The notes below the pieces were generated by a model. It searched no databases. It saw only the letters and a program-made list of their open reading frames with translations, and was not told where the DNA came from. This document shows, piece after piece, positions 16,341-31,300 of a stretch of DNA of 64,000 nt. The position numbers were made by a program, and so were the translations under genes. Position 1 is the first letter of the stretch. Each line of letters opens with the position of its first letter. Origin of the DNA: Paraspadella gotoi (Eukaryota > Animalia > Chaetognatha); NCBI GenBank assembly GCA_051294375.1, contig CM119263.1, forward strand, positions 14,869,574 to 14,933,573, given 5' to 3'.

Positions 16341-17529
16341 ATGTCCGGTCGATCCTCGGTCAACGATCTTCCGCAACACCGAGTCGTCGTCGTCGGCGCC
16401 GGCGGCGTCGGAAAGAGCGCCATCACCATCCAACTCGTCCAGAATCACTTTGTCGAATTCTGGGATCCGACGATCGAGGATTCCTACAAGAAAACGGTGG
16501 GTCTCCAGGACTGCGAAGAGGCGTCGCGGTGGGGCAACGGGTCTAGGAGACTTTATAGTTCTCTATCTGTCGATTGCAGACAAATCTAATTGGGTCACTA
16601 TTCAATATTCATAGCAAAATGAATTTAGCATGAGGCTGTTATAAATAGTTGTACGTAAAAAAAGGTTTCACAATTGTTAAGACAAGAGATTTTAAAAGAT
16701 TTACCACGAATATTAAAGACGAAAGCATCCATTACCAATTAAAAAAAAACTTCTCCACTCAATAAGGTACTCGTTGACGCGGAACCCCTCGTGCTCGACA
16801 TCTTGGACACAGCGGGTCAAGATGGTTACAGGTGAAAAGACTAATAGATGAGCACGAAACGATCGATACTTATTCTAAATCCAGCCATTTAATTAAATGA
16901 TTGTACATCGCACAAGTCAATGCCTCATATTGACCCCAATATTGAGCGCCGAATAATTTACCCTCCCCCTTTTCCAGCGCCATGCGTGAGCATTACATGA
17001 GATCCGGCGAAGGATTTCTCGTCGTCTTCGATGTGACAGACGGAAAATCCTTCAGCGACGTCGCCGAATATCGAGAGTCCATCCAAAGGGTCAAGGACAG
17101 GAACGAGGCGAGCTAAACGAAGATTTTAACTAGAAATAACCCTCAAATTGCTTCATAAATTAAATTAAATGACAATATAAAATAAGAGTCAATTCGCCGA
17201 ACAGGTTCCAATGGTTTTGGTCGGTAACAAGTGCGACTTGCACCATCGGGTCGTCGACTTTAAAATGGCAAAAGAGGTAAAAAAATGAAAGAAAGTTGGT
17301 TTTTCATTAAAGCGTTTACGATTTAACTGTTGACTTATACCAGTTGGCCGAAGAGTTTGGTATCCCCTTCATCGAAACTTCGGCGAAGACCCGACAGGGG
17401 ATCGTCGACGCATTTTTCACCCTCGTTCGAGAAATCCGAAGAATGGCGGAGGAAGAGAGAAAGAGGAGGAAGATCACGCAAAAAAACAAAAGACTTGATC
17501 GGGTCAATCAATGTTGCAACGTCTCCTAG
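16341..17529 (+). CDS. Ras-family small GTPase, 202 aa. Exons 16341-16496, 16767-16831, 16978-17107, 17205-17276, 17344-17529
   Basis: G1 GAGGVGKS, G2 DPTIEDSY, G3 DTAGQ, G4 NKCD, G5 ETSAK, a polybasic tail and CAAX (CCNVS*). Exon phases are consistent; intron 3 has a GC donor (GAG|GCGAGC). Confidence 0.96.
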
Positions 17530-17681
17530 CTTTATTAATATCGCCCAATTATAAGTTTTAATATTATTATTGCTACTGTGATCGCTACTAATTTTATCTT
17601 GAAAATAAAAAAAAAATAAAAAAATCGATTACAAACTTTTATATTTTTTACGAACAAGAAAAACGTGTGACCCTGAAGACT

Positions 17682-20600
17682 TTATTCTTCGAGATCCAGC
17701 TCGCACAACTCCTTTAACAAGGATTGTTCCAAAGGAGAAGCGAAGGACGACTGCGCGGATTGGCGCTCAATCACTTTGGCATTACTCATGCGCTCTACAT
17801 GATCGGGACACAACCACAGAATTTTCCCGGAAGGCAAAAGGCATCTCTTGAGGCTCAGTTCGTCGCCGCGAATCTGCAGTGCTCTGACCGCGAGTTGCTG
17901 CACGTCATGATACGAGTCGATGAGGGTCTCCGAGTCTCTCTCCATCGTGGCTTCAATATGGCTCACGATAAACTTTATGATTTTGTTGAAGTCCTCAGAA
18001 TTAACGACATTAATTCCTTTCGCGTTGGCCTTTTTCAAAATTTTCCAGACCATGGAAACGTAAAACGAATGCTGTTGAAGGAATCTCTGAAAAGTTACGC
18101 CCGGCAAAATAACCTCGTTATCAACGCTGCAATAATGCCATCCATCCTCGCTCTCACACAAAAATTTGACGTGAACCGCGTCGTCGTAGGTTGTTATGTC
18201 GACGTCAGTATCGAACGAGGGTAAATCCGGAATTATTAAACGAGGGGTCGGATTCCCGGCGTTATCTAAACGTTTGCCTATTTCTGAAAGTTGTCTTAAC
18301 AGTTGATGTTGCAGCAGTAATGTTTTTTCTTTGAGGTGATGAATTTTGTGAGGACTATTTGGTTTTTTAGCAGTGAAATATTGTTCATGATACTTTTGAG
18401 CTAGGTCGAGCACCTCCTTAAGTTTAGAGTCATTTTTTGATTTCAAGTCAAAAATAGGAATGTTTGCCCTCGTTATAAGCAAACCTACTTCAGAATATTG
18501 CCATTGACTTTTTTCAGATGCCCCAACTTCGACCACAATCATTGGCTTTCGTAGTACAACAGAAGCAAACCTGAACTCCATGATACAATTTTTAGAATTT
18601 GCGTATTCATCTGAGATGCAAACAACAATAAAGTTCGATTTTCTCAGGCCTTTAGCAATTTCCTCAAACAGGGCACCTCTGTCTATTTGCTCAATATCAA
18701 GCCACGTCGATATCCCAATACTCTCAAGATAGTTTTTCAGTTCTCTCGGATCTATCCATCCAACAGCTCCATCAATCATTTGCAAGTTGCTGCTATTAAC
18801 AGCTTCTTTAGAATTAGACCAACAGTATGAAAGAAAACAAACAGAATCGCATTGATTCTGCGATTTTCCAGCGAGTAAACGAAGAATCTCTTCCAACTTA
18901 TTTTGAAGCAATGAAAGCTCACTTAAGTCAATATATAAATCGGTACAGTATCTACTTATCAGGGTAGATTCTTTCCACAGCTTACTTTGTTCTAAAACTA
19001 ATAAGACAACAGGAATATTGAGCATTTCCAATATGGCGAATAACTTATTACATTTTAAAATGTCCATAATGAAATTATCTGATATAAATAATAATATTTG
19101 CTCCAGGGTCACGTCTGAAGCTTGAACATCATCAAGCAGGCAAGTATTATATCCATGGTCTTTTAAATAGTAATTAACATACTTAATCAAACTTTGATTA
19201 TCTATTTCAATGAGGAAATCTTTTTCACAGAAAGCTAAACATAGGGGTTTGGAATGATCAATATCTATAGTGCCAAGTTCCTCCATTCCATTTTTTAACT
19301 GAAGATAAACTTGATAATTATAGTTTAGGTCTGCTGGAAGATTATTCAGTATGCAATCCACTGGGACAGCATGGAAATTTGCTCTACATTGAATAATAGG
19401 AATCTTTTTTTTCGATGCCTTTAAAATAGTTGATGCATAAAAATAGTCTGTGTCAAGAGAATCTTCTTCTAGACATGCTAAACACTGAATAGAATAATCA
19501 AACTTTATTCCTGGAAAATTTGTTTTGACTAATGTTTCGAGTACTTCATGTACTAAAAAGCTTATATTATCTGGTTGAGAGCCAATAGCTTTCAAACATA
19601 TTGTTTTCATTGTTTGTTTTTGTAGAATCCCTCTTTGTCCATGTTTTATCAATAAGCAACCATATTTCCAAATATTAGTACTATCACAAAGAGAATGCAA
19701 GCGAACTTGCAGTCGATTAAATAGACCAGCAGGTATATATTCAAATAAATAACATGTCTTACAAATTAGTTCATCACCTTTTTTGATGTCAAATTCTTTA
19801 ATTAAAATTGGTTCATCTTCAGACATTAAACAAGGCACAATACTATAATTATAGTCTGGCAACGGGAAGGTCAAATCAAACTCTTGAGTTAAATTCAATA
19901 GCCAAGTATGCATTTCAGTAGGGTAATCTTTCCAAATCTCCTTTAAATTTTCATAGTAAAGTATTCCTGTTCGAGCACATTCAGAAAAGTTTTTCACTGA
20001 TATCAAACATTTCATAACATTAACCAGCCATTGAGGATTAGTTATCACAAATTTTCTCAGAGCAAGTGAATTGAAGTGTTGAATTGATCCAAGCTCATGA
20101 AGAAATTGCGTAGCATTGAACACTGATTCACATGAAACTAGACCTGCATTGTTCCCAAACTCAACAACTTCCTCCCATGGTAAGAAAGGTTTATTGCAAG
20201 AGATTAATAATTCTTCCAAAGCAAGCCAGGTTTTTGGGATTTTTTCCTTCATATATGGCTCATCTTTTGCCCTTTTAACTATAGCATTCTTCAATATTTC
20301 TAAAGATGCATGATCTTCAATGCTATCTACATAATAAAAGCCAACAATTTGTGGGAAACGATTTTTTAAAGAATTTTCTGGAATGGAAAATCGAGAAACT
20401 TGATTTTTGTGTGTGCCAACGATAAAAACAGGGGAGTGAGGTGCATGGCTATAGATTGAGTTAATCCAAAATTCAACACCAGCATACTCATGGCCCAAAC
20501 GAACATTCCAAAGTAACAAATATACTGCTCGAGATGAAAGAAAAAACTGATGAGTATTATAATATAATGACTGCCCCGCAAAATCCCAGGTGGCAAATTT

Positions 20601-23600
20601 GATGTCTTGAATATTCCAGTATTTAATAGAAATTCCATCTGTCAAATTTGTTTTCAGATCATTTTTACCAATGAAGGCATTAAGAAGTGTTGTTTTTCCA
20701 CTTCCACCCAAGCCTACTAACATCAGTTTGGTTCGAGAACATTCTTCTTCACCAGCTTGAAGGCCCTTTAGGAATCCAATAATTGTTGTAAGACCTTTTA
20801 TACTTACTTCTCTAGGAGGGCATACAAGGTTTATACAGTTAACCAAACTAAGTGATTTTAAATTGAATTCTCCGTAATTTGGATCTATTTTGGTCAAATA
20901 TGGATTGTTATCTAAGTTCAGCTTTGTTAAAAAAGTCGATTTTATGAGCGGTAAACATGTTATTGCAGAGTTACCCAATGATAATTCCTGAAGACACTTT
21001 AGTTTGATAAAACTTTTGGGTATTTCTTTCATTCTATTTTGTAATGATCTTTTAAAAATTATTACACTTAATTTAGCAACACAATTGTATTCGGAAACTT
21101 TCTTCAAATCATTCTGAGTTATCAAGTCAATAAAATTTGGGTCCATAGAATCAAAAGTACCTGTTTTAATTGCTTCCATATCATCGGTATTTAATAACCA
21201 AGGCACATTGCTGTAGTTAAACTTTTTAAGAGGAAGTTTCCCAAAAGATGAAGGAAAAAATGTACATAATGAATGCTGCATATCTAAAATGAGCAAATTT
21301 AAGTTACCAATTGATTCCGGAAGAGATGATATTAATGTATCACTAATCTTTAACTCTTTTAAAACCTTCAGCCTACCTATATCATTAGGCAAAGCTTTTA
21401 GTGGATTGTTATGAACTTTTAGTATTTTGAGATTACTACAATTTATAATATCACTGGGTAAATATTCAAACTTATTATTACCTAAAAATAAAAATTTCAA
21501 TTTGAGACAATTTCCTATTCCAGATAAATTATCTAGAAGGTTGTTACCAAGACTAAGTTCAACAAGATTAGGATAAAACCCATCAAACTGACTTAAGCAG
21601 TTTTGATTATATTGAAGCGAGATTATATGCTCATGGTAAGCATTTAACAGTGTTGTAGGAATATGCTCAAGCTGCTTATTTTGTAAATTCACATTACAAT
21701 GAGAAATGCAATTAATGTTATTTCCATATTGTGACCAGGTATTATTGTCGCTTAAACTAGTATTTATTTCTTCAGTAAGTAACGTTTTTGAATCTTTAAA
21801 GTCACTTGGAAAACAGTTCATGATTTGAGGTTTGTATTGAACTGTTGACAAAATACAGCTTGCAATGAATATATTGATTTTTTGTTGTATTGATTCTACA
21901 CTTGATGTGTCCCCAATCTCTATGTAATTGTTATCAATAATTGTAAAATTTGACCGTCTACAACTTGCTAAGAGACAGTGAAACATAAATGGTAAAAGCT
22001 GAGTAAAGGTTAAGTCATGCGAAAAAGGGCTTTGATGGACCAAATGAATCATATTAGATGTTGAACATATTACATGTCCAAAAAGTTCTTTTGATTCATA
22101 TGTTGTCGCAAGATTTATTACTTCTGGGAAAAATATACAAGGATTTCCATGGCGCCTTTGGTTAAACTTAAAATAAGCTTTAATTCTTTGCTGAGTTAAC
22201 TGAAGAAGTCTGGAAACTTTAAAAAGATTATTAACAACAAGAACATCCAATATTGGTAGGGAACGGTTTGTTTGTTGCTCTGTAAATAATTCATAGGGCA
22301 CTGGAATACTGCTTGTATTTGTTAAATATGAGCTTGGGTTTTTGAAATATTTTTCAACAAGAATATTTATCCCGCACTCAGATTGGTACCAACCACAAGG
22401 ATGAATTTTGGTACTTGTACATGAAAATTTGTAGGAATCTTTAAGTGAGTCATCATCAGACATGACAATAATTTCATTTTCTTCTTCTATAGAGATTATT
22501 GTTGCTGGACTAACTACCAAAGTATTATCATTTATGCAGAATTCCACTTCTAGTTTACAGTTAAGGCAATTATCCCATTTGTACTCAAAACCATCACAAA
22601 ATTTTGGTAAGACCACCTTTTTCTTATGTTCAGAGATTTTTAAATCGTCAAATATTGAGCTGCATATTTTTAATAAAGGTTCTGAATTAAGTGCTAACCA
22701 TTTCTGTTTTTCAGGCTCCGTTTTGATGAGAAACTCCACGGAGTTATTGCCTGAAGCATAACTGTCACCAATTTCAATTGTTATGTTTTCTGTTTTAATG
22801 GTAGTACCTAACTTAAGAAATGTACTAATTGGGCGACTATTATGGAAAACCGGAATAGCAAGAGATGGTGCTTTTATAAGAGAAATTTTGTCAAATATTT
22901 CAGTGGAACTTTTATCCATATCAAAAAGAAAATGATAATTATCCCATTTAACTTTAAAAGAGGCTTTCCTCTCATAAAGTTTTTTACTGCTGTTTTTTTG
23001 CTCATGTAAAGCAAAAACCAATTTTAGTTTAGCTGATGTGTCTGAAGAGTCTTGCTCTTGAATATTTGGGTAAATAGATATCATTATTTTTACTACGTAC
23101 TTACTAAATGCACCATCAGTAAGCTCAAAAACAGCTGTTCGAATGGAATCACTTATGACGTCAATGTCACCCTGCTTTAAAAATTTGCACATACCATTTT
23201 CATGAACAACTTTAATGTTAAGCAAGCTGTTATAAATGGCTAACCGGAAAGGGATATTTCTGGTGATAATTATTTCAACTTTACTTCCATCTCCAGGAGT
23301 TAAGGGACTTAAAGGTAACAGTGGAAAAGTATTAAAATTATATTTAGGGTAGATGCAAATATGCTGATGAAGAAAAATAGGTTTTATAGAACAAGCTATT
23401 CCCCAAAGCTCTAATGCTATATGCTCAGAAATGTGTGGTAAGTATTTTAATTCATTAGTTGGCTCCAAATACATTCCATCAAAGTTAACATATTCTTTAA
23501 AAATTGAAAAATCATTACAAAAATGTCCAAGGCGCTCAGAATTTGATATAGCGATATAGGCAGAAGTTTTAAGCATACAATGCTCCAAATATAACTGAAA

Positions 23601-26600
23601 AATTTTTAGGGTATTTTGAAGACATTTTTTATGAACTTCATTGACGAAAATTAAATTTAAATTGTCCTGAATGGAAGCAAAAAGTAACAACTTTTCTTTA
23701 GTTAACTCAAGATTTATGATCGTGTTTCCAACTCGGAATTGTGCAAAATCATTTGAAGCTTTTTCTATTCGACAGATCTTCCTTACAGCAAACACCGTTG
23801 CCCAAACTAGATCATAAAGTAATGCCTGGGATAAATTCAAAAAACTATATGATATTTGAGTTAAAATTTTTTCATCCAATTTCAAACCTTGATAATACAA
23901 TGTTTCAAACGTTTTCTTGCTGGTTTTGAACAGTAAACCCTCATTCTCCAGATGAATTAACAAGCATGAAACTTCTTTTTGGTCAACTTCAATTCCAAAA
24001 TCCCTTCCAAGTTTAATTATTAAATCATTTATTGATTTTCTTTGACTTGGGTTGTGACTCTCGTCAAAATACTCAGAGTATATGACATCATGCAACTTCA
24101 TGTAAAAATTTAATGAAATACAAATTGTATTTGCAATTATGTTATTGTTAAAACATATTATTTTTCTTCGCCTTTGCAAAATCATTAGCATTGACAAAAT
24201 TGAACTCTCGAGCAAATTCTCATGTTGTTGGTACAAACTGTTTAGTAAAATAATGTGTTTTTCATTAATTATCTTTTCAAGTTTACATAAATTATCAAAA
24301 ACAACCTGTTCAAGAGAAAGGGGCTCCTTCACATGTTTGAAGGCAAGTTGAGCATCAAGCTCCAAAGGGTCATCATAAACAGAAAAGACAATATGTTTTA
24401 GAAATTTCTGTAAAGCCACACATCTTTTAGCAAATAGTGACTGCTCATAAAAAGTATGTAATTTTTTGTCTAGGTGATTTAATACGGTTTGAACATCAAT
24501 TTTCATAATTGATTCTAAATTTATAAAATATTTTTTTACTTCGTCATAATCAGCCCTATATATTAGTAACTTGATTGAAACAGAATATTCAATGGTTTTT
24601 ATTTTTAAAACAAGGGAAACGACTTTTTCTAAAAAAGAATTTACATGAGGATTAGAAGTAAGTGGAATAATACAAATAGTTTTTTCTGATAAACAATGTT
24701 GAGTGATAAATTCTGAAAATATGCAGTTGTCTGTAAGGTCATGTTCATTGTTTTTTTGACTCTTATCTTTCAGGTGATGACAAATATTCTTTGACTCCTC
24801 ATTGAAGTAAATAAAGACCCGATGTTTTAGGTCAAATTGCCTGGAATGTACTAAACTCTTAGACAAGTCATTAATTAACAATGGTCCTGTTACAAAAATA
24901 TCCATCTTCTTTATGGTGATAGGAATGTTGCAAACACCAGTTTCAATTAAAGATAAATAATTTAGGTCACGACATTTCACTAACAGAGTATTCATGAATA
25001 TATCTGTTAGTTGATGGCAATAATTGAAATTTGCATACTTGAGCCTTGTAAATACATTGCCTATGAAATATGAAGATATATTTGAAAGATGAAAACAGCC
25101 AGAGCACGATAAAGTAGTTACATTAGGAAGCAATACGCCTTCAATTTGGTTTCTCATTTCGTTAATCACTGCAAAGAAACCGTCATTCAGTACTTCAAAA
25201 TTATCAAATACAACTTTTCTAATTTGCGACCACTGGCTGATGCTCTTCAATTGCGAAAAGTCTAAAGAGTGTGCAGTTTCATCCACATTTAATACTATAG
25301 GAACCTCAAACATTATAGAAAACTCTAATGTTAAACCAGCTTTGTCAAAGCTTTTTTCGCACGATTGAACAAATCTTGAGTCAAAGGCTATTTTTTCCTC
25401 ACTACTGTGCCAAAAACCAATCTCTTTGAACGTATTTAGTAATGATATAGTCACATTTTGAATCAAGGGGCCATCTACTGAAAAATCTAAGCTTTTCATT
25501 ATATTGAGTTGACGTGTGTTTTCTATTTCTACTGAAAAAGTTTGTTTCAAAGGTTCAGTATCATCCAGCATCTTAACTTCAACACACACGGTCAGGGTTT
25601 TGAATAGAAAATTTCTGACCGAGTTTATCTCACGAATACAAACATTTAGTGTGGATGTTGGAATTTTGACTCTGTTCCATGTCAGTGTGGATGAGCATTC
25701 AAGCGACTGTTCTTTGAGTTTTTGAAAAGATTGTTGAGTGTCTTGATTTAAAAGGCAGATTGAAACTTTATCGAATTTATCATAATTAGATCGACTACTT
25801 AAAAAATTAGTAACTGAATTGAAAGCTATTTCTATAGCGCATTGCCGAGAACAATTCATACCCCCGGGCGACAGATTAGGAAAACTTATAGTCCGCAAAC
25901 CATGATTCATTGCTAATTGCAAGGACGAGACATAACAGTCATAAAGTTGAGCCTTCTTGTTACTTATTTCATCATGTTTAGAATGATTAAAAACGGGACA
26001 TCTTACATGAATCACATTTGAAGCGAGAAGCTTGTATCCATTTGTAATAAAAGCATGTCCAACGTCAAGCTCATTTTCTAGAAATTCAATTTAAAAAAAA
26101 AAATAATAATTTCATAAACACTTAAATAGTTAAACACTTATAATTTTTTACCCAGAACCCGCGTAACCTCCTCTTCAAATTCAGGTCCTGCAGCATTGAG
26201 AACTTTTGTAAATAAAGTAGAACGGAGTGGGACAGAAGATGCGCTTAATTAAATAAATTATATAAGTGTCAGCAAAACTCATGAAATCAATTATTTCAAA
26301 TAAACAGGAATTTACCTTTGAGTTTGAAGGCATTTAGTATACCGCTTGTCGGTATTGGAAACAATGGCATCATCCTAAAACAGAAAATGCTTATAGTATG
26401 GCAACGGGGAGACATGTGTGATGCCCGGGGTGTGAGGAACTCCCGACAGCTGGCGCTCAGGGCTTTGGACCTGCAGTGACCACGAAGGCGGGCCAAAATT
26501 GAACACTTTTTATAACTTCTAGTTCTCTCAAAAAATGTCTTTTTTTCTTCTATTACTAAATCGATTTTAAATGCAACTTTTTGAATTCATTCAAATGACA

Positions 26601-27358
26601 AAAAAAAAATTTAAATTTTATTTTTTAAGAACGGATTCCTATAGAGCTTGAAAAGTTAAATGAAAGTTAGTACTACAATTTTTCAAATTTTGACAATAAA
26701 TTGGTTAAAAATAGAAAAAACCTTAAAAAATCATCATCAGCATCATCATTGGCTGAATTTTATAGTTTTTTTTCATTAATAAAACAAACAAAAAATTTAA
26801 AGAGTTGTATATATGGTGGTGGTTTTCACGCAATCTTTAACTTTGTTTTGTCTTTAGACTTAGCTTTGTTTTGATGCTCCTGTATGTACTGAATCAACCT
26901 TGTTGAATTCGAAATAAAACGCATATATATATAGTAGTCATAAAATAATCTTTAAATGCTTCCGTGCGCTTATCAATAAGCTAAATTTTTAAAATTATTC
27001 TTATTTTCAATTTCTCTAACAGTCACTTAAGCATTAGTTATTTGAAAGTTGCGGTCCATGGACCACCCCATGTCACTGGCGTGTTTAAGCCGACATCATC
27101 ACACTTTAACCAGCGTGAGCGTAAGGGGATTGAACCCAGATCTCATGGTGGGTGAACGAGTACTTAGCAGTCCAAACCAAAGGGACGAACTGAGTTTCAC
27201 CAAGCTATACGGGAGGCGAATTTAGGATTCGCCACAATAGACCTTTTTTTCACTTCATTAACTAGTAAAGCCATTCAAATCCATACCGGTCTTTGGGTGA
27301 TGTCACCGATGACAAATTGTACTTTTCGAAAAACATCCGACAAAGGCAAATAATCCAT
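17682..27358 (-). CDS. Giant ROCO-family protein (~2872 aa): Macro - C2-like - Cys-LRR - long divergent region - MBT - LRRs - Roc - COR - TIR-like - TIR - C-terminal domain. Exons 27358-27287, 26374-26316, 26243-26152, 26077-17682
   Basis: Three small 5' exons splice in phase to an 8396-nt open exon and complete a Macro fold (GDIT…DAIV…AAGPE…G.AFIT.GY.L.A..VIH…TISFP). MBT: KLEV…SPATI…IHPCGW. LRRs. Roc: KLMLVGLGGSGKTTL / WDFAGQ / VFIVGTH. COR: FLHELG…NPQWL…LFNRLQVR. TIR: CFLSYCW…WLDIEQ…ISDEYANSKNCIMEF. Confidence 0.92.
26397..27236 (-). mobile_element. Solo-LTR-like element (family E) in ROCO intron 1, interrupted by a ~575-bp nested insertion; partial copy at 52250-52444
   Basis: Termini TGTGGC…GCCATA with a 4-bp TSD ATAG (26393-26396 / 27237-27240), a 5' hairpin GGCGAAT-cctaa-ATTCGCC and a B-box-like GGGTTCAATCC. 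gaccac is duplicated at 26478 and 27061 around the nested insert. Confidence 0.7.
26813..26928 (+). repeat. Short dispersed repeat family G; near-identical reverse-complement copy at 49718-49831, related ends at ~32505-32570 and ~55745-55815
   Basis: ggtggttttcacgcaatctttaactttg…gtactgaatcaaccttgttgaattcgaaataaaacgcatata matches 49718-49831 on the opposite strand. Confidence 0.8.
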
Positions 27359-28381
27359 TATAAGGTTGGATTCTCACATCATTTGAATGTTTTGTTTTTT
27401 TTAAATGTCGATCCTGTTCGCCGACGATCGGGTTTTCGCGTTCAGTTAAAGCTTAAAAGAGAAGACACGAAACCAAAGGTTGTTCCGATCTCGATGACAA
27501 AAATACTGGCGGTTGTTGTTGTGGTTGTTAATTTTGCCAGAGATCGGGCGTTTCCTCGAGTTGAAAAAATAAATCGCTTTATAACGAAGATTGTAGCTTT
27601 GGGAAATCGGGAGAGACCGTAAATAAAAATGTTATTAGAATTGATCGATTAGTCGCCGTTTGGATTTGATAAATAATTGGCTCAAAAATATAAACCTTGA
27701 CTAGGAATAATGTAATTAATGAAAATGTAATGATTCTCACTGAGCGATAAATATTTGTATCCATCGATTTTTTTTCCCCGACTTCCCACCTAAAAGTTTG
27801 GGAGACTTTGAAGTTTGGTTGACACAAATGTATAGATACCTAAATTTTATATACAAAATAAAATATCCTGTCCTCACATCTCAAAATCTGTCCTTTTCTC
27901 AAAATTTTCTTGGTGACTCTCTTTCTCCCTCTCTCTCTCTCTCACATTTCCTGTAAAGTTAAAATTTTTGTCAAATCACAAGTGCTGAAAAAGACGAAAC
28001 ATGTCAATCGTTACAAATAAAATCGTTGTTTGAAATAATCAAATTCTCTCTAATCCACAAACGCAACGAAAGAAAGGATTTCACATAAAACAAAATAAAA
28101 CATATTCATTGTGCATGTCATAAAAGAAAAATTATAATCATAATTTTTTTCTGAATTTGCTAGAAAAAAACCTTGAAGCCTTTTCACTAAATGATAAATG
28201 CTCGCTGCTACCAAAATACTTCCAAAATAATTTTTCAATGCTAAATGGCGTTCTCGGGTTTTTATTAAATTTTCACGTATTTATTAAACTTCTAGTATTT
28301 CAGATTAGACAATAACAAAAGGTTTTTTTTTAATTCACAAATACAACGATATTTAGTTTTTGTCGTCGTTCTCTAATCTAG

Positions 28382-31300
28382 TCATAAACGTCTGCTTTCG
28401 CTGTTTTCGTCGTGATCTTCGTCTTCGGTTTCCCGCCCAACGCACCAGGCGCATTTCGAATCCATGAGGGTGACGCCAAGATTAAGCGCCTGGGCGTGGG
28501 TGGGGCAGCGCCGAGAGGCGGGACACGTGACGACCAGGTTAAGCTGTAGGTCTGAACTGAATTCGCGCCCCTCTGTTGATCGAGGGACTGACGCCATATG
28601 TCGGTTTAGGTTCAACTCGGAGTTATTATCCACGAACCTGAACAACAAAAATTAAATGGAAACAAATCAAGCAACCTTAGTAATTAAGGTGCAAAACATA
28701 AAAACTGAATATTAGGTGAAGCGTCTCATTAAAAGTGTACTTTCTCCTTATTTTCTATTTTATACGCATCTCCTCTAATTTTCTTTCCTCGCGCTTTTCA
28801 ATATCGCTTAAAAAGTTTATGACATAATCAATATTCTTCCATTCTCTTGTCTTAATTTATCGAAATTATTAAAGGCGTTATTTTATTGACTCAATTACTG
28901 ACTCGACTATCGATCGTCATTCGATTGTCGCCTCAGGAAACTCACTCTTCTGGAGAATCGGGCTTCAATGGGCGAATGTCGACGAAGCATCGAGCGATGT
29001 TTCGTCGCGGGTTCAAACAAAAAACAGCCGGGGCGAAGGTATCCTCTAGATTCGTAAGAGGAATGGTCTTTGCCTTCACAAGAGAGTTGATCTTCTCCCA
29101 GGCCAAGAAACTGTGTGACAGACAAAACTCCCAATTTTCAGCCATTTTTTTTTCATTCGTTGACCCTCATCGCAAATACCTCATGATCTGATTCCTCCCG
29201 AAAGCGTTCAGCTTCGTCAGCAGACACTTTTGAAGGTTGTACCACTGGGCGAGATATAGGATCTTGAGATGCTCCTTTCGATCGAATCCCTCGGCTAGTT
29301 CGAGACTGAGATCGTCCTCGGGAACGGGGATGTTCCAACCTTGGCGCCTTCTGACGGAGATGACAGAACTTCGGCACCGGGAAAGCGAACGGCCGCCGAG
29401 AGAGTCCGACGCCGAGATCTCCGGCACGTAGTTGCTGAAGGTAATGCGCCGCCGTTGAACGCTGGCACCGTGACGCTTTCGAAACGAGGACGCCAACGAG
29501 GGCGCCCGAGAGGTCGCCAATTCTTTTCCATACTACATGAGAATAGTTTTCTTTCCTTATTGCTTCGAGACTTAAATGAAAGTTATTATTAAATTCGATC
29601 TTGTCACGATTTAAAAAAAAAAAAGATTCACTAATAAGCCCTAATAAGTCTAATTCCAACCACCTTTGGCACAGGCGACAGCACCATCGGCGAAACTCGG
29701 TTCTTATTCAAGTCGCTCTCTTCACTTCCGCTTTCTTCCTGCGTAGGCAATTCGAGTCCATCTGCTACTATCTTTTTAAACTCATTCATCGCAGCCGCAT
29801 CTTTATCGCCTTCGAATTTCTCCTTTTTGATGTCCATCTGCAGCATATGACCAGCGAGAGAGTAGATCACGTGACCAAGCGATGCCAGAGATAGGCGATA
29901 GACCACCACCACGGTTTGCGCTATACAGTCGTAATCGGCCACGCGAGGGTACTGATACAAATTTAGCAGGATAAAGCTATCAAAATATTTCGTTTCCGCT
30001 ATAAACAAATGTAAAAAAAAATCTTAAATCCATAATAATTGACAAACAGTACAAGACTGCTACCTCCGAAGCTTTAACAACAGGTATCTAAGGATTCGAA
30101 CGAACCCGTTTGTTCATTTTCATTTTTTGCATAATTCGAGACAACCATCTTGGCTAGATTTTACTCTTTAGGGTCTTTTATGACTGCATTAATTTAAGAC
30201 ATCGACAATCGCAACTAAGCTAAGTCATAAAATTAATAATAAATTATGAAACAAAACAAAAAACAAAAAAAAACAACCTGTAATGCAGACTTTCTCTTAA
30301 ATCTCTTGGGATCGTGAGCCAAGACCACGTTTCGAGGCTCCACCTTGTATTGCATCTTTTTCCACGTGACGACGGCGGAACCAGAGACGACGTAAATCAC
30401 GTGATCGTCCAAGTCACCGTGAGAAACCAAAAAATCGCCGGGGAGAAATATCTTCTCCTCCACGAACAAAGATAAGTACTGTGAGAGGCAACAGGGGGTA
30501 GGGTAAAAAAACAGCCAAACTCTGTTCAGTGGTGTCTCGGCGACCCCATGAGATGACTTCCGTCAAGAAGATCAATCCAACCACTTGACTTCTCCCGATC
30601 TCCCTCTCTTCTTCTCTTCGCCTTTTGATACTTCTTTGTCACTTACAATTGGGACCAACTCCAGAGATAATATAAAATTTCGACTAATAGCAAATTTTTT
30701 TTAGTTTTCTTGACTAAATATTTAAGCAATCATTTTCAAAAAAAAAATTACATTATACGTTTTGATTAATATATTAAATATTACTTGTCTTTTTTCACTT
30801 TTTAAAATTTTTTTTTTGAAATCTTACAATTTTTTGATGGATTCTGATAGAGCATAAAAAGTTAAACAAAAAACATAATTACAGCTTTTAAAAATTCTAA
30901 GTGAAAATAAAAAAAAAAAAAAAAAAAAAACTAATAAAATTATTGAAAATTTTTTTACGGTTTTTCTTATTTTTGACTCACTTATCATGAAAATATTTAA
31001 AAGAGAATTATACTTTGTGTAGACAGTTTTTTATGAGCTATCTGAATCTAAAAATTAACAAAAAAAATTTTGGCCTTTCCTATCTATAAATAAATATTAA
31101 AAGTTAATTACTAGGGTATAGAGCCATATAAGAATTGTTTTGTCCATTGAAAGTATACTTCAAAATGTATAAATTTTCGTTTGAGCATGTAATCATTCTA
31201 AATTTACTTACACTTGAAACTTCGAATTAGGAAGAGAAGGGAATATACGGGTATCCGTGGCGAAGGTCAACTCATCAGGTCGCGGAATCACCAGAAAACT

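Follow-up and report, generated by a model that had tools for sequence, protein, structure and literature searches.

Can a single animal polypeptide both generate a nucleotide-derived signal and read it? The question is raised by a minus-strand gene located between positions 27358 and 17682 of a 64,000-nucleotide (nt) stretch of the chaetognath Paraspadella gotoi genome (contig CM119263.1, forward-strand positions 14,869,574 to 14,933,573; hereafter the window, whose numbering is used throughout), in which macrodomain (Macro), leucine-rich repeat (LRR), MBT, Roc-COR GTPase and TIR sequences appeared to lie in one chain. The original prediction proposed that a signal-producing TIR and a product-reading Macro are wired to a GTPase oligomerisation switch, giving feedback control within one protein of about 2870 residues. 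The account that we favour, with modest confidence, is that its product is a divergent representative of the invertebrate LRR-Roc-COR-TIR family, probably a nucleotide-switched, NAD+-cleaving immune signaller, in which the macrodomain is a likely enzyme-dead addition and other accessory domains have eroded. The backbone of this protein is known; what is new is the fused Macro, itself degenerate.

An open reading frame (ORF) scan delimited 2,802 minus-strand codons without a stop (17682-26090), a frame said to lack three 5' micro-exons that complete the macrodomain. This was borne out, as a single 932-nt contig of sequencing run X1 splices 27410-27287, 26374-26316 and 26243-26152 onto the big exon from 26077, so that the RNA check proposed across 27358-26077 has one contig spanning all three joints. 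The introns between the four exons measure 912, 72 and 74 nt and follow GT..AG on the minus strand in all three cases; transcript cover of exon 1 extends to 27410, an in-frame stop is present 5' of the ATG, and the spliced coding sequence of 8,619 nt ends in one terminal stop and yields 2,872 amino acids (aa), the size foreseen. A real spliced gene with a 2,872-residue product, its Macro exons joined to the big exon, is confirmed. Run X1 was the only one containing this stretch, with 87% of sampled words present, and may be the source sample; that it is RNA is a guess, and at the two neighbouring genes its contigs are joined across canonical introns. Contig cover comprises 17671-22859 (0 differences to the genome), 23245-24152, 24139-25181, 25185-25483 and 25452-26077, leaving 22860-23244 and 25182-25184 unbridged among the listed contigs, none of which runs singly from Macro to TIR; the one-chain claim therefore rests on the uninterrupted genomic frame together with the spliced 5' contig.

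At its 5' end the spliced contig carries 31 extra letters absent from 25000-27650, with an AG 4 bases upstream of 27410, which could represent either a short additional exon further upstream or a leader added by trans-splicing. At the other end, an X1 contig stops at 17671 plus 28 unplaced letters, which suggests a very short 3' untranslated region. Intron 1 holds pieces of high-copy repeats (26424-27230; summed contig depth up to ~3,600 vs ~7 for the exons), and no notable internal repeats were found in that interval.

The Macro, MBT, LRR, Roc-COR and TIR positions of the original prediction were all reproduced by Pfam (in ORF numbering, Macro 6-89 with E 2e-13, Roc 1788-1895, COR-A 1952-2089, COR-B 2114-2249 and TIR_2 2449-2552, besides the LRRs). 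Roc, COR-A and COR-B scored above the Pfam cut-off, and MBT (1187-1236) reached 20.5 bits, below the cut-off of 22, or 24.2 bits with the segment scanned alone. From the N-terminus, the chain reads Macro, an unassigned segment, LRR, a predicted pseudo-Roc-COR, MBT, LRR, Roc-COR, TIR1, TIR2 and a C-terminal domain (Table 1).

The family to which this backbone belongs is broadly distributed. A Roc-COR search recovered 130 proteins at E<=1e-40; the 120 listed share 40-49% identity with the query, come from molluscs, annelids, nemerteans, brachiopods, rotifers, flatworms, Plectus, amphioxus, a hemichordate and Trichoplax, and include 116 with TIR_2, 28 with MBT, 25 with SPRY and none with Macro. 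Searching the whole library brought in 135 more proteins, including one from an apusozoan, a word search with the whole ORF gave 3 matches in 5,077 candidates, and no close relative was found among 59 candidates in metagenome contigs. The occurrence of LRR-Roc-COR-TIR proteins in invertebrates is already published from Aplysia, Trichoplax and anemones: LOC101848126 (LRR, MBT, Roc, COR, TIR) and LOC101845043 of Aplysia (PMC9334734), and NG1 of an anemone together with an MBT form of Trichoplax (PMC5094078; papers are cited here and below for the accessible parts of their text). The MBT-LRR-Roc-COR-TIR backbone has thus been described; the Macro fusion, which the original prediction did not recognise elsewhere, occurs in 0/257 retrieved relatives. 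Furthermore, the protein is colinear with the family (LRR, Roc-COR, tandem TIR, C-terminal domain) and nests within it in trees. In a tree of 120 sequences and 828 columns it forms a long branch paired with P0130 (support 0.99), possibly through long-branch attraction, and no resolved grouping with the molluscan MBT clade was recovered, MBT bearers being scattered across the tree.

Two features of the relatives were observed in passing. The central slot of the family swaps MBT, SPRY, C2 and PF01477 (e.g., P0102, P0103, P0112, P0089 and P0023), and several N-termini consist of poly-proline followed by a short helix that resembles WH2 by eye.

The enzymatic core of the proposed signaller would be the last of two TIR domains. 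Its C-x-x-E glutamate, emphasized in the original prediction, belongs to an NCIMEF motif at 18590-18573, and its codon was confirmed (Table 1). Among the 119 relatives with >=85% of the Roc-to-TIR2 region covered at >=400 bits (138/257 were left out), this Glu is kept in 118, the motifs F-x-S-Y, W-x-D and S-D-E-Y..C-x-x-E are near-invariant, and the invariant Ser-Tyr, Asp and Ser positions are all present in our protein. In an alignment with the Cat1 TIR, the two Glu residues coincide. The predicted structure of the last 542 residues (predicted local distance difference test, pLDDT, 81) contains a pair of TIR folds. TIR2 resembles Hydra TRR-2 (Z 15.7, root-mean-square deviation (rmsd) 2.2, 123 aligned) and the SARM1 TIR (Z 13.9, rmsd 2.4, 125 aligned), TIR1 resembles Cat1 (Z 13.6, rmsd 2.6, 123 aligned), and the Foldseek matches of this C-terminal model include plant TIRs. 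TIR1, which had been overlooked, is thus modelled as a second TIR preceding TIR2; it has no Glu at the catalytic position, a column dominated by Leu, Met and Ile across the 119 relatives. Given that TIR2 keeps the Glu and motifs, that this Glu aligns with that of Cat1, and that animal TIRs bearing it can be active, cleavage of NAD+ by TIR2 is a plausible prediction. Active animal TIRs mostly make canonical cyclic ADP-ribose (cADPR), and the legend of the figure on cADPR-making TIR proteins includes LRR, Roc and COR in its list of their domains, the text not naming the protein concerned (bioRxiv 10.64898/2026.04.20.719644).

Whether this domain is governed by an ordinary GTPase is less straightforward. 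The Roc-COR module had been called intact, which is correct for the Roc-COR tandem and for motifs G1-G3, all canonical (GLGGSGKT, T-D-G and WDFAGQ), but not for G4 and G5, where Asn1966 replaces Asp and Asp1992 replaces Ser (Table 1). These positions correspond to NKID and SCK in the solved structure that matches best, chain 4wnr of an archaeal Roco (E 2e-22), and the X1 transcript contig has identical codons. When 133 Roc domains were realigned, a G4 Asn was accompanied by a G5 Asp in 8/8 cases, and a G4 Asp in 2/115. The side chain of the G5 Ser probably contacts the G4 Asp. The other seven Asn/Asp domains (P0159, P0182, P0191, P0198, P0211, P0232 and P0245) belong to prokaryote-type LRR-Roc-COR proteins, either metagenomic or unnamed, and sit in one clade of nine (support 1.0) apart from our protein of the animal family; because they form this distant separate clade, the pair likely arose twice. 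The same clade holds an Asp/Asp member ending in TIR (P0196), and P0191 ends in a SIR2-like domain (SIR2_2). No G4 Asn was detected in the 80 metagenome loci kept of 387, most of them short.

One reading of this pair is that nucleotide specificity has changed, the Roc domain being a switch for xanthosine, inosine or adenosine triphosphate that gates the TIR. This is compatible with the account favoured here, and we regard it as somewhat unlikely. It draws on precedent, as G4 Asp>Asn makes Ras xanthine-specific and SpoIVA became an ATPase through changes in G4/G5 (PMC7952092, PMC8295990), as well as on the coupled and probably repeated appearance of the pair beside intact G1-G3 motifs. However, only two independent origins are involved, the second change may merely compensate for the first with GTP binding kept, the G4-G5 region varies in Roc domains generally (PMC6337361), and the protein, on its long branch, departs from the family at 10/121 near-invariant columns, a count higher than in every relative except one, mostly by conservative changes. 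Most simply, the pair would be a compensated pocket still turning over a purine triphosphate. The literature searched, including the accessible parts of PMC4316618 and PMC6337361, holds no mention of a G4 Asn/G5 Asp pair in Roc; as a recurrent combination, it would be nature's equivalent of the specificity switch engineered into Ras by D119N.

A further departure from the original prediction concerns the N-terminal half, where a hidden, family-wide LRR-pseudo-Roc-COR copy is predicted that had been overlooked. A profile of this half, built from 20 MBT-bearing relatives, matches aa 346-634 (E 2e-19), the MBT and the main LRRs. Comparison of the family N-block with the family's own Roc-COR by hhalign gave 98.1% (E 9e-14, 430 columns) with no P-loop, and the same result when projected on this protein. 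The model of ORF residues 1-1200, which excludes the true Roc-COR, shows COR-like topology and matches Chlorobium LRR-Roc-COR (E 8e-10), LRRK1/2 and an isolated COR (E 2e-4), and a 501-aa segment of this half alone matches COR-A/Roc clusters (0.94). The second TIR and the pseudo-Roc-COR are unmentioned in the accessible parts of PMC9334734 and PMC5094078, no literature search having been aimed at the duplication. Between the two halves sits the MBT, as in the MBT-bearing subfamily. Methyl-lysine reading by MBT repeats depends on an aromatic cage of Phe, Trp and Tyr; here all three are replaced, and the FDGW found in 18/20 relatives reads SDDD. The EF-hand loop, canonical in 7/20 relatives, is degenerate in this protein.

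The macrodomain is the part on which the producer-and-reader idea depends. Complete with its micro-exons (aa 12-194), it reaches 100 bits (E 1e-30) with a MacroD-type profile made from the six bacterial-reference loci L001-L006, to which it is 29-34% identical; Macro clusters of an atlas are matched at 0.94, and the nearest solved relatives are human MACROD1/2 (E 1e-12). In macrodomain pockets a Phe stacks on adenine; here it is Leu, and the ribose-stacking Tyr is Met. The five catalytic residues of OiMacroD (Asn27, Asn30, Asp40, His44 and Tyr134; PMC5413906) are replaced by Ser, Asp, Phe, Leu and Met, respectively, so that 0/5 are kept. In that enzyme, the Gly35-Val39 loop forms the distal-ribose site and Ser130/Gly132/Val133/Tyr134 the diphosphate clamp (PMC5413906); in our protein the loop glycines (Gly36-38, OiMacroD numbering) have become Arg/Ser/Thr, preceded by a 12-residue insertion, while the adenine Asp19 and the diphosphate-loop Ser144 and Gly146 (OiMacroD Ser130 and Gly132) are retained. 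At columns conserved in >=5/6 references, 3/7 pocket positions are kept vs 31/54 others (p 0.69), giving no sign that conservation has singled out the pocket from the rest of the domain. These substitutions point to a MacroD-type fold that is likely enzyme-dead: hydrolase activity is very unlikely, and any binding of linear ADP-ribose (ADPR) by the domain would probably be weak. A Synechocystis plasmid macrodomain (L002, 1-851) shows similar losses (Asn30>Asp, Asp40>Ser, Tyr134>Met), so that such variants do occur in nature.

The fusion itself appears lineage-restricted. The MacroD profile found this protein at E 1e-31 and 0/257 relatives better than E 0.1; as many relatives are partial, a fairer set is the 70 reaching the N-terminal LRR, of which 46 have >=80 residues ahead of it and 0/46 a Macro, the other 24 being too short there. 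Profile search found no Macro in the 80 kept metagenome loci, most of them short, nor did 69 candidates include longer proteins sharing the Macro part, which is weak evidence. The literature searched, in which subscription journals are thinly covered, contains no description of a Macro-Roc-TIR protein. As far as these searches reach, then, the fusion is unreported and would be unique here.

Could this Macro nevertheless be a non-catalytic reader of the TIR2 product, or of ADP-ribosylated proteins, feeding back on the switch within one chain? Physical fusion through the spliced contig, the retention of the whole fold at 100 bits and of Asp19, Ser144 and Gly146, and the loss of hydrolase residues, which fits a pure reader, are in its favour; the macro domain of EcThsA is likewise non-catalytic, with 12% identity to MacroD and unique insertions, and it binds ADPR at 4.6 uM (PMC11204291). 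The comparison has a difficulty, however: the ThsA macro binds linear ADPR and IAD (imidazole adenine dinucleotide) but not 2'/3'cADPR, and canonical cADPR, the main product of active animal TIRs, is absent from the ligands described (PMC11204291). Moreover, the adenine-stacking and ribose-stacking residues and the glycine loop are replaced, pocket residues are not preferentially conserved, none of the 257 relatives needs a Macro, and the other ligand pockets of the protein (MBT, EF-hand) have decayed. Since the MacroD catalytic residues and glycine loop are lost, producer-plus-reader feedback is possible but unsupported, and we consider a reader role unlikely. The fusion matters mainly if ADP-ribose is bound.

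The erosion of so many sites invites another explanation, namely a decaying, fast-evolving paralogue whose accessory domains and nucleotide pocket are being lost, leaving a scaffold or little function. The long branch, the lost Macro, MBT and EF-hand sites and the lost G4 Asp agree with this, as does a third-position GC content of 0.18-0.33 over codons 1-2500 vs 0.37-0.68 in neighbouring frames. Conversely, an 8.4-kb frame without a stop is maintained in a spliced transcript, 111/121 near-invariant columns are kept, including the whole TIR2 active site and G1-G3, and the G5 change takes two base changes and parallels another clade. Decay is thus, in our judgement, very unlikely as an overall account.

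Third-position GC also jumps along the gene, from ~0.25 (codons 100-2500) to 0.58-0.60 over the final 170 (17682-18200), a GC-richer tail that is nonetheless homologous to the family C-terminus. An antisense frame over it (17718-18224) is in register with the sense codons and was treated as a by-product. The 8.4-kb exon and low third-position GC prompted us to consider a retrogene or horizontal-transfer origin, which was dropped because several metagenome relatives have uninterrupted Roc-COR stretches and the tree shows no donor.

In the favoured account of a diverged, nucleotide-switched signaller, the LRRs would take the input and the Roc-COR would alternate between paired and unpaired states with its nucleotide load, by analogy to Chlorobium Roco, a dimer when GDP-bound or empty and a monomer with GTP (PMC5714945). 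The N-terminal copy without P-loop would likely serve as an internal pairing partner holding the switch off; once this clamp is released, TIR2 domains would assemble with one another and cleave NAD+, the product being most likely cADPR or ADPR, and TIR1, lacking the Glu, would act as a scaffold. The Macro would derive from a MACROD1/2-like gene, its fold kept as an interaction or stabilising module. A bolder version joins all the novelties in a single-chain, metabolite-gated NADase, in which a MACROD copy has gone from erasing to reading ADP-ribose, the live Roc-COR is clamped by the dead one, and a convergent Asn/Asp swap has rewired the Roc to a non-guanine nucleotide; it is highly improbable, and if true no earlier animal TIR enzyme would have had its own ADP-ribose sensor and no earlier Roco protein would have been other than a GTPase.

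Several observations weigh against the favoured account. The immune role is suggested by domain content alone. In E. coli, 12/61 Glu-bearing animal TIRs were active, and some Glu-bearing animal TIRs are inactive (bioRxiv 10.64898/2026.04.20.719644). GTP makes Chlorobium Roco monomeric, which leaves the step from switch to TIR clustering conjectural. As regards the pseudo-Roc-COR, mean pLDDT of the ORF 1-1200 model is only 44, and aa 470-970 alone scored 3.1 bits against the family N-block profile, below three shuffles. With respect to a binding-deficient Macro, pockets tolerate substantial change: the ThsA macro contacts ADPR via Asp/Ser/Gly/Thr (PMC11204291), the glycine-loop mutant G37V retains binding (PMC5413906), and an Af1521 variant with G42E still binds (PMC8319303).

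Beyond this gene, the literature found on the family consists of descriptive mentions only, although its members are spread over molluscs, annelids, amphioxus, Trichoplax, rotifers and an apusozoan. Given the cADPR-making animal TIRs, its members are candidate NLR-like NADase receptors, with a Roco switch in place of the STAND ATPase. A family-wide pseudo-Roc-COR would also allow the Roco pairing cycle, which has been studied in homologues of LRRK2, to be modelled within one molecule.

Table 1. Exons and predicted protein features of the Roco-TIR gene (window coordinates; aa numbering of the 2,872-residue product).
Feature	Position	Strand	Remarks
Coding exon 1	27287..27358	-	72 nt, ATG at 27358; carries Macro GDIT adenine-binding motif
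Exon 2	26316..26374	-	59 nt, Macro DAIV strand; canonical NAAN is SNTD here
Exon 3	26152..26243	-	92 nt, AAGPE motif; glycine loop replaced
Exon 4	17682..26077	-	8,396 nt, intronless, ends at stop codon
MacroD-type macrodomain	25719..27325	-	aa 12-194, four exons; catalytic residues lost
~145-aa segment	25281..25715	-	aa 196-340; no Pfam match
N-terminal LRR array	24891..25265	-	aa 346-470; common to family
Degenerate second Roc-COR (predicted)	23541..24863	-	aa ~480-920; without P-loop
MBT repeat	22281..22532	-	aa 1257-1340; aromatic cage lost
Main LRR array	20751..21683	-	aa ~1540-1850; family EF-hand insert degenerate
Roc G domain	20271..20735	-	aa 1856-2010; G1, G2, G3 canonical
G4 Asn1966 (AAT)	20403..20405	-	Asp in 119/119 relatives
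G5 Asp1992 (GAT)	20325..20327	-	Ser in 118/119 relatives
COR-A and COR-B	19344..20237	-	Pfam
TIR1	18855..19244	-	aa ~2353-2482; TIR fold, without catalytic Glu
TIR2	18366..18842	-	aa ~2487-2645; Glu2575 codon GAG at 18578-18576
Family-specific C-terminal domain	17685..18353	-	no Pfam match

The segment at aa 196-340 matched neither Pfam nor the N-termini of relatives; its assignment as a C2 domain was not supported, as it ranked 132/301 vs shuffles with a 3-sequence C2 profile. In the vicinity, a spliced divergent Ras-family gene (16341-17529, plus strand) is convergent, with ~150 nt between stop codons; a spliced gene of unassigned family (28252-30023, minus strand) lies ~850 nt upstream on the same strand; and many exons at 32400-56700 (minus strand) resemble, by eye, a large putative cyclic-nucleotide-gated channel gene.

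Among known systems, the invertebrate LRR-(MBT/EF-hand)-Roc-COR-TIR proteins are the nearest, with the same order of LRR, MBT, LRR, Roc, COR and TIR and, for the Aplysia protein P0053, ~30% identity over ~1,570 residues; our protein differs in its N-terminal Macro, its lost MBT cage and EF-hand, and its G4 Asn/G5 Asp. Prokaryotic conflict proteins combine LRR, AP-GTPase (Roc) and COR with effectors, TIR among them (PMC8195603), and together with Chlorobium Roco they share with our protein an LRR-Roc-COR followed by a variable effector, and its mode of working would be similar; unlike them, it belongs to an animal-type lineage, has a second Roc-COR copy and carries two TIRs in tandem. With MACROD1/MACROD2 and YmdB/OiMacroD it shares the MacroD fold and the GDIT, AAGP and Ser-x-Gly motifs, but none of the five catalytic residues, its glycine loop being replaced and the domain fused to a Roco-TIR chain. 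Type II Thoeris similarly pairs a TIR with a non-catalytic macro (PMC11204291), here predicted from sequence in one chain. In Thoeris, the ThsA macro is of a distinct class and belongs to a transmembrane effector separate from the ThsB TIR, whereas the present macro is MacroD-derived and in cis with the TIR in a single spliced eukaryotic gene. In SARM1, the ARM domain senses NMN (nicotinamide mononucleotide) and NAD+ and restrains the TIR NADase of the same chain. SARM1 is thus a precedent for a single-chain, metabolite-gated TIR NADase; our protein has no ARM or SAM, and its oligomerisation would come from Roc-COR.

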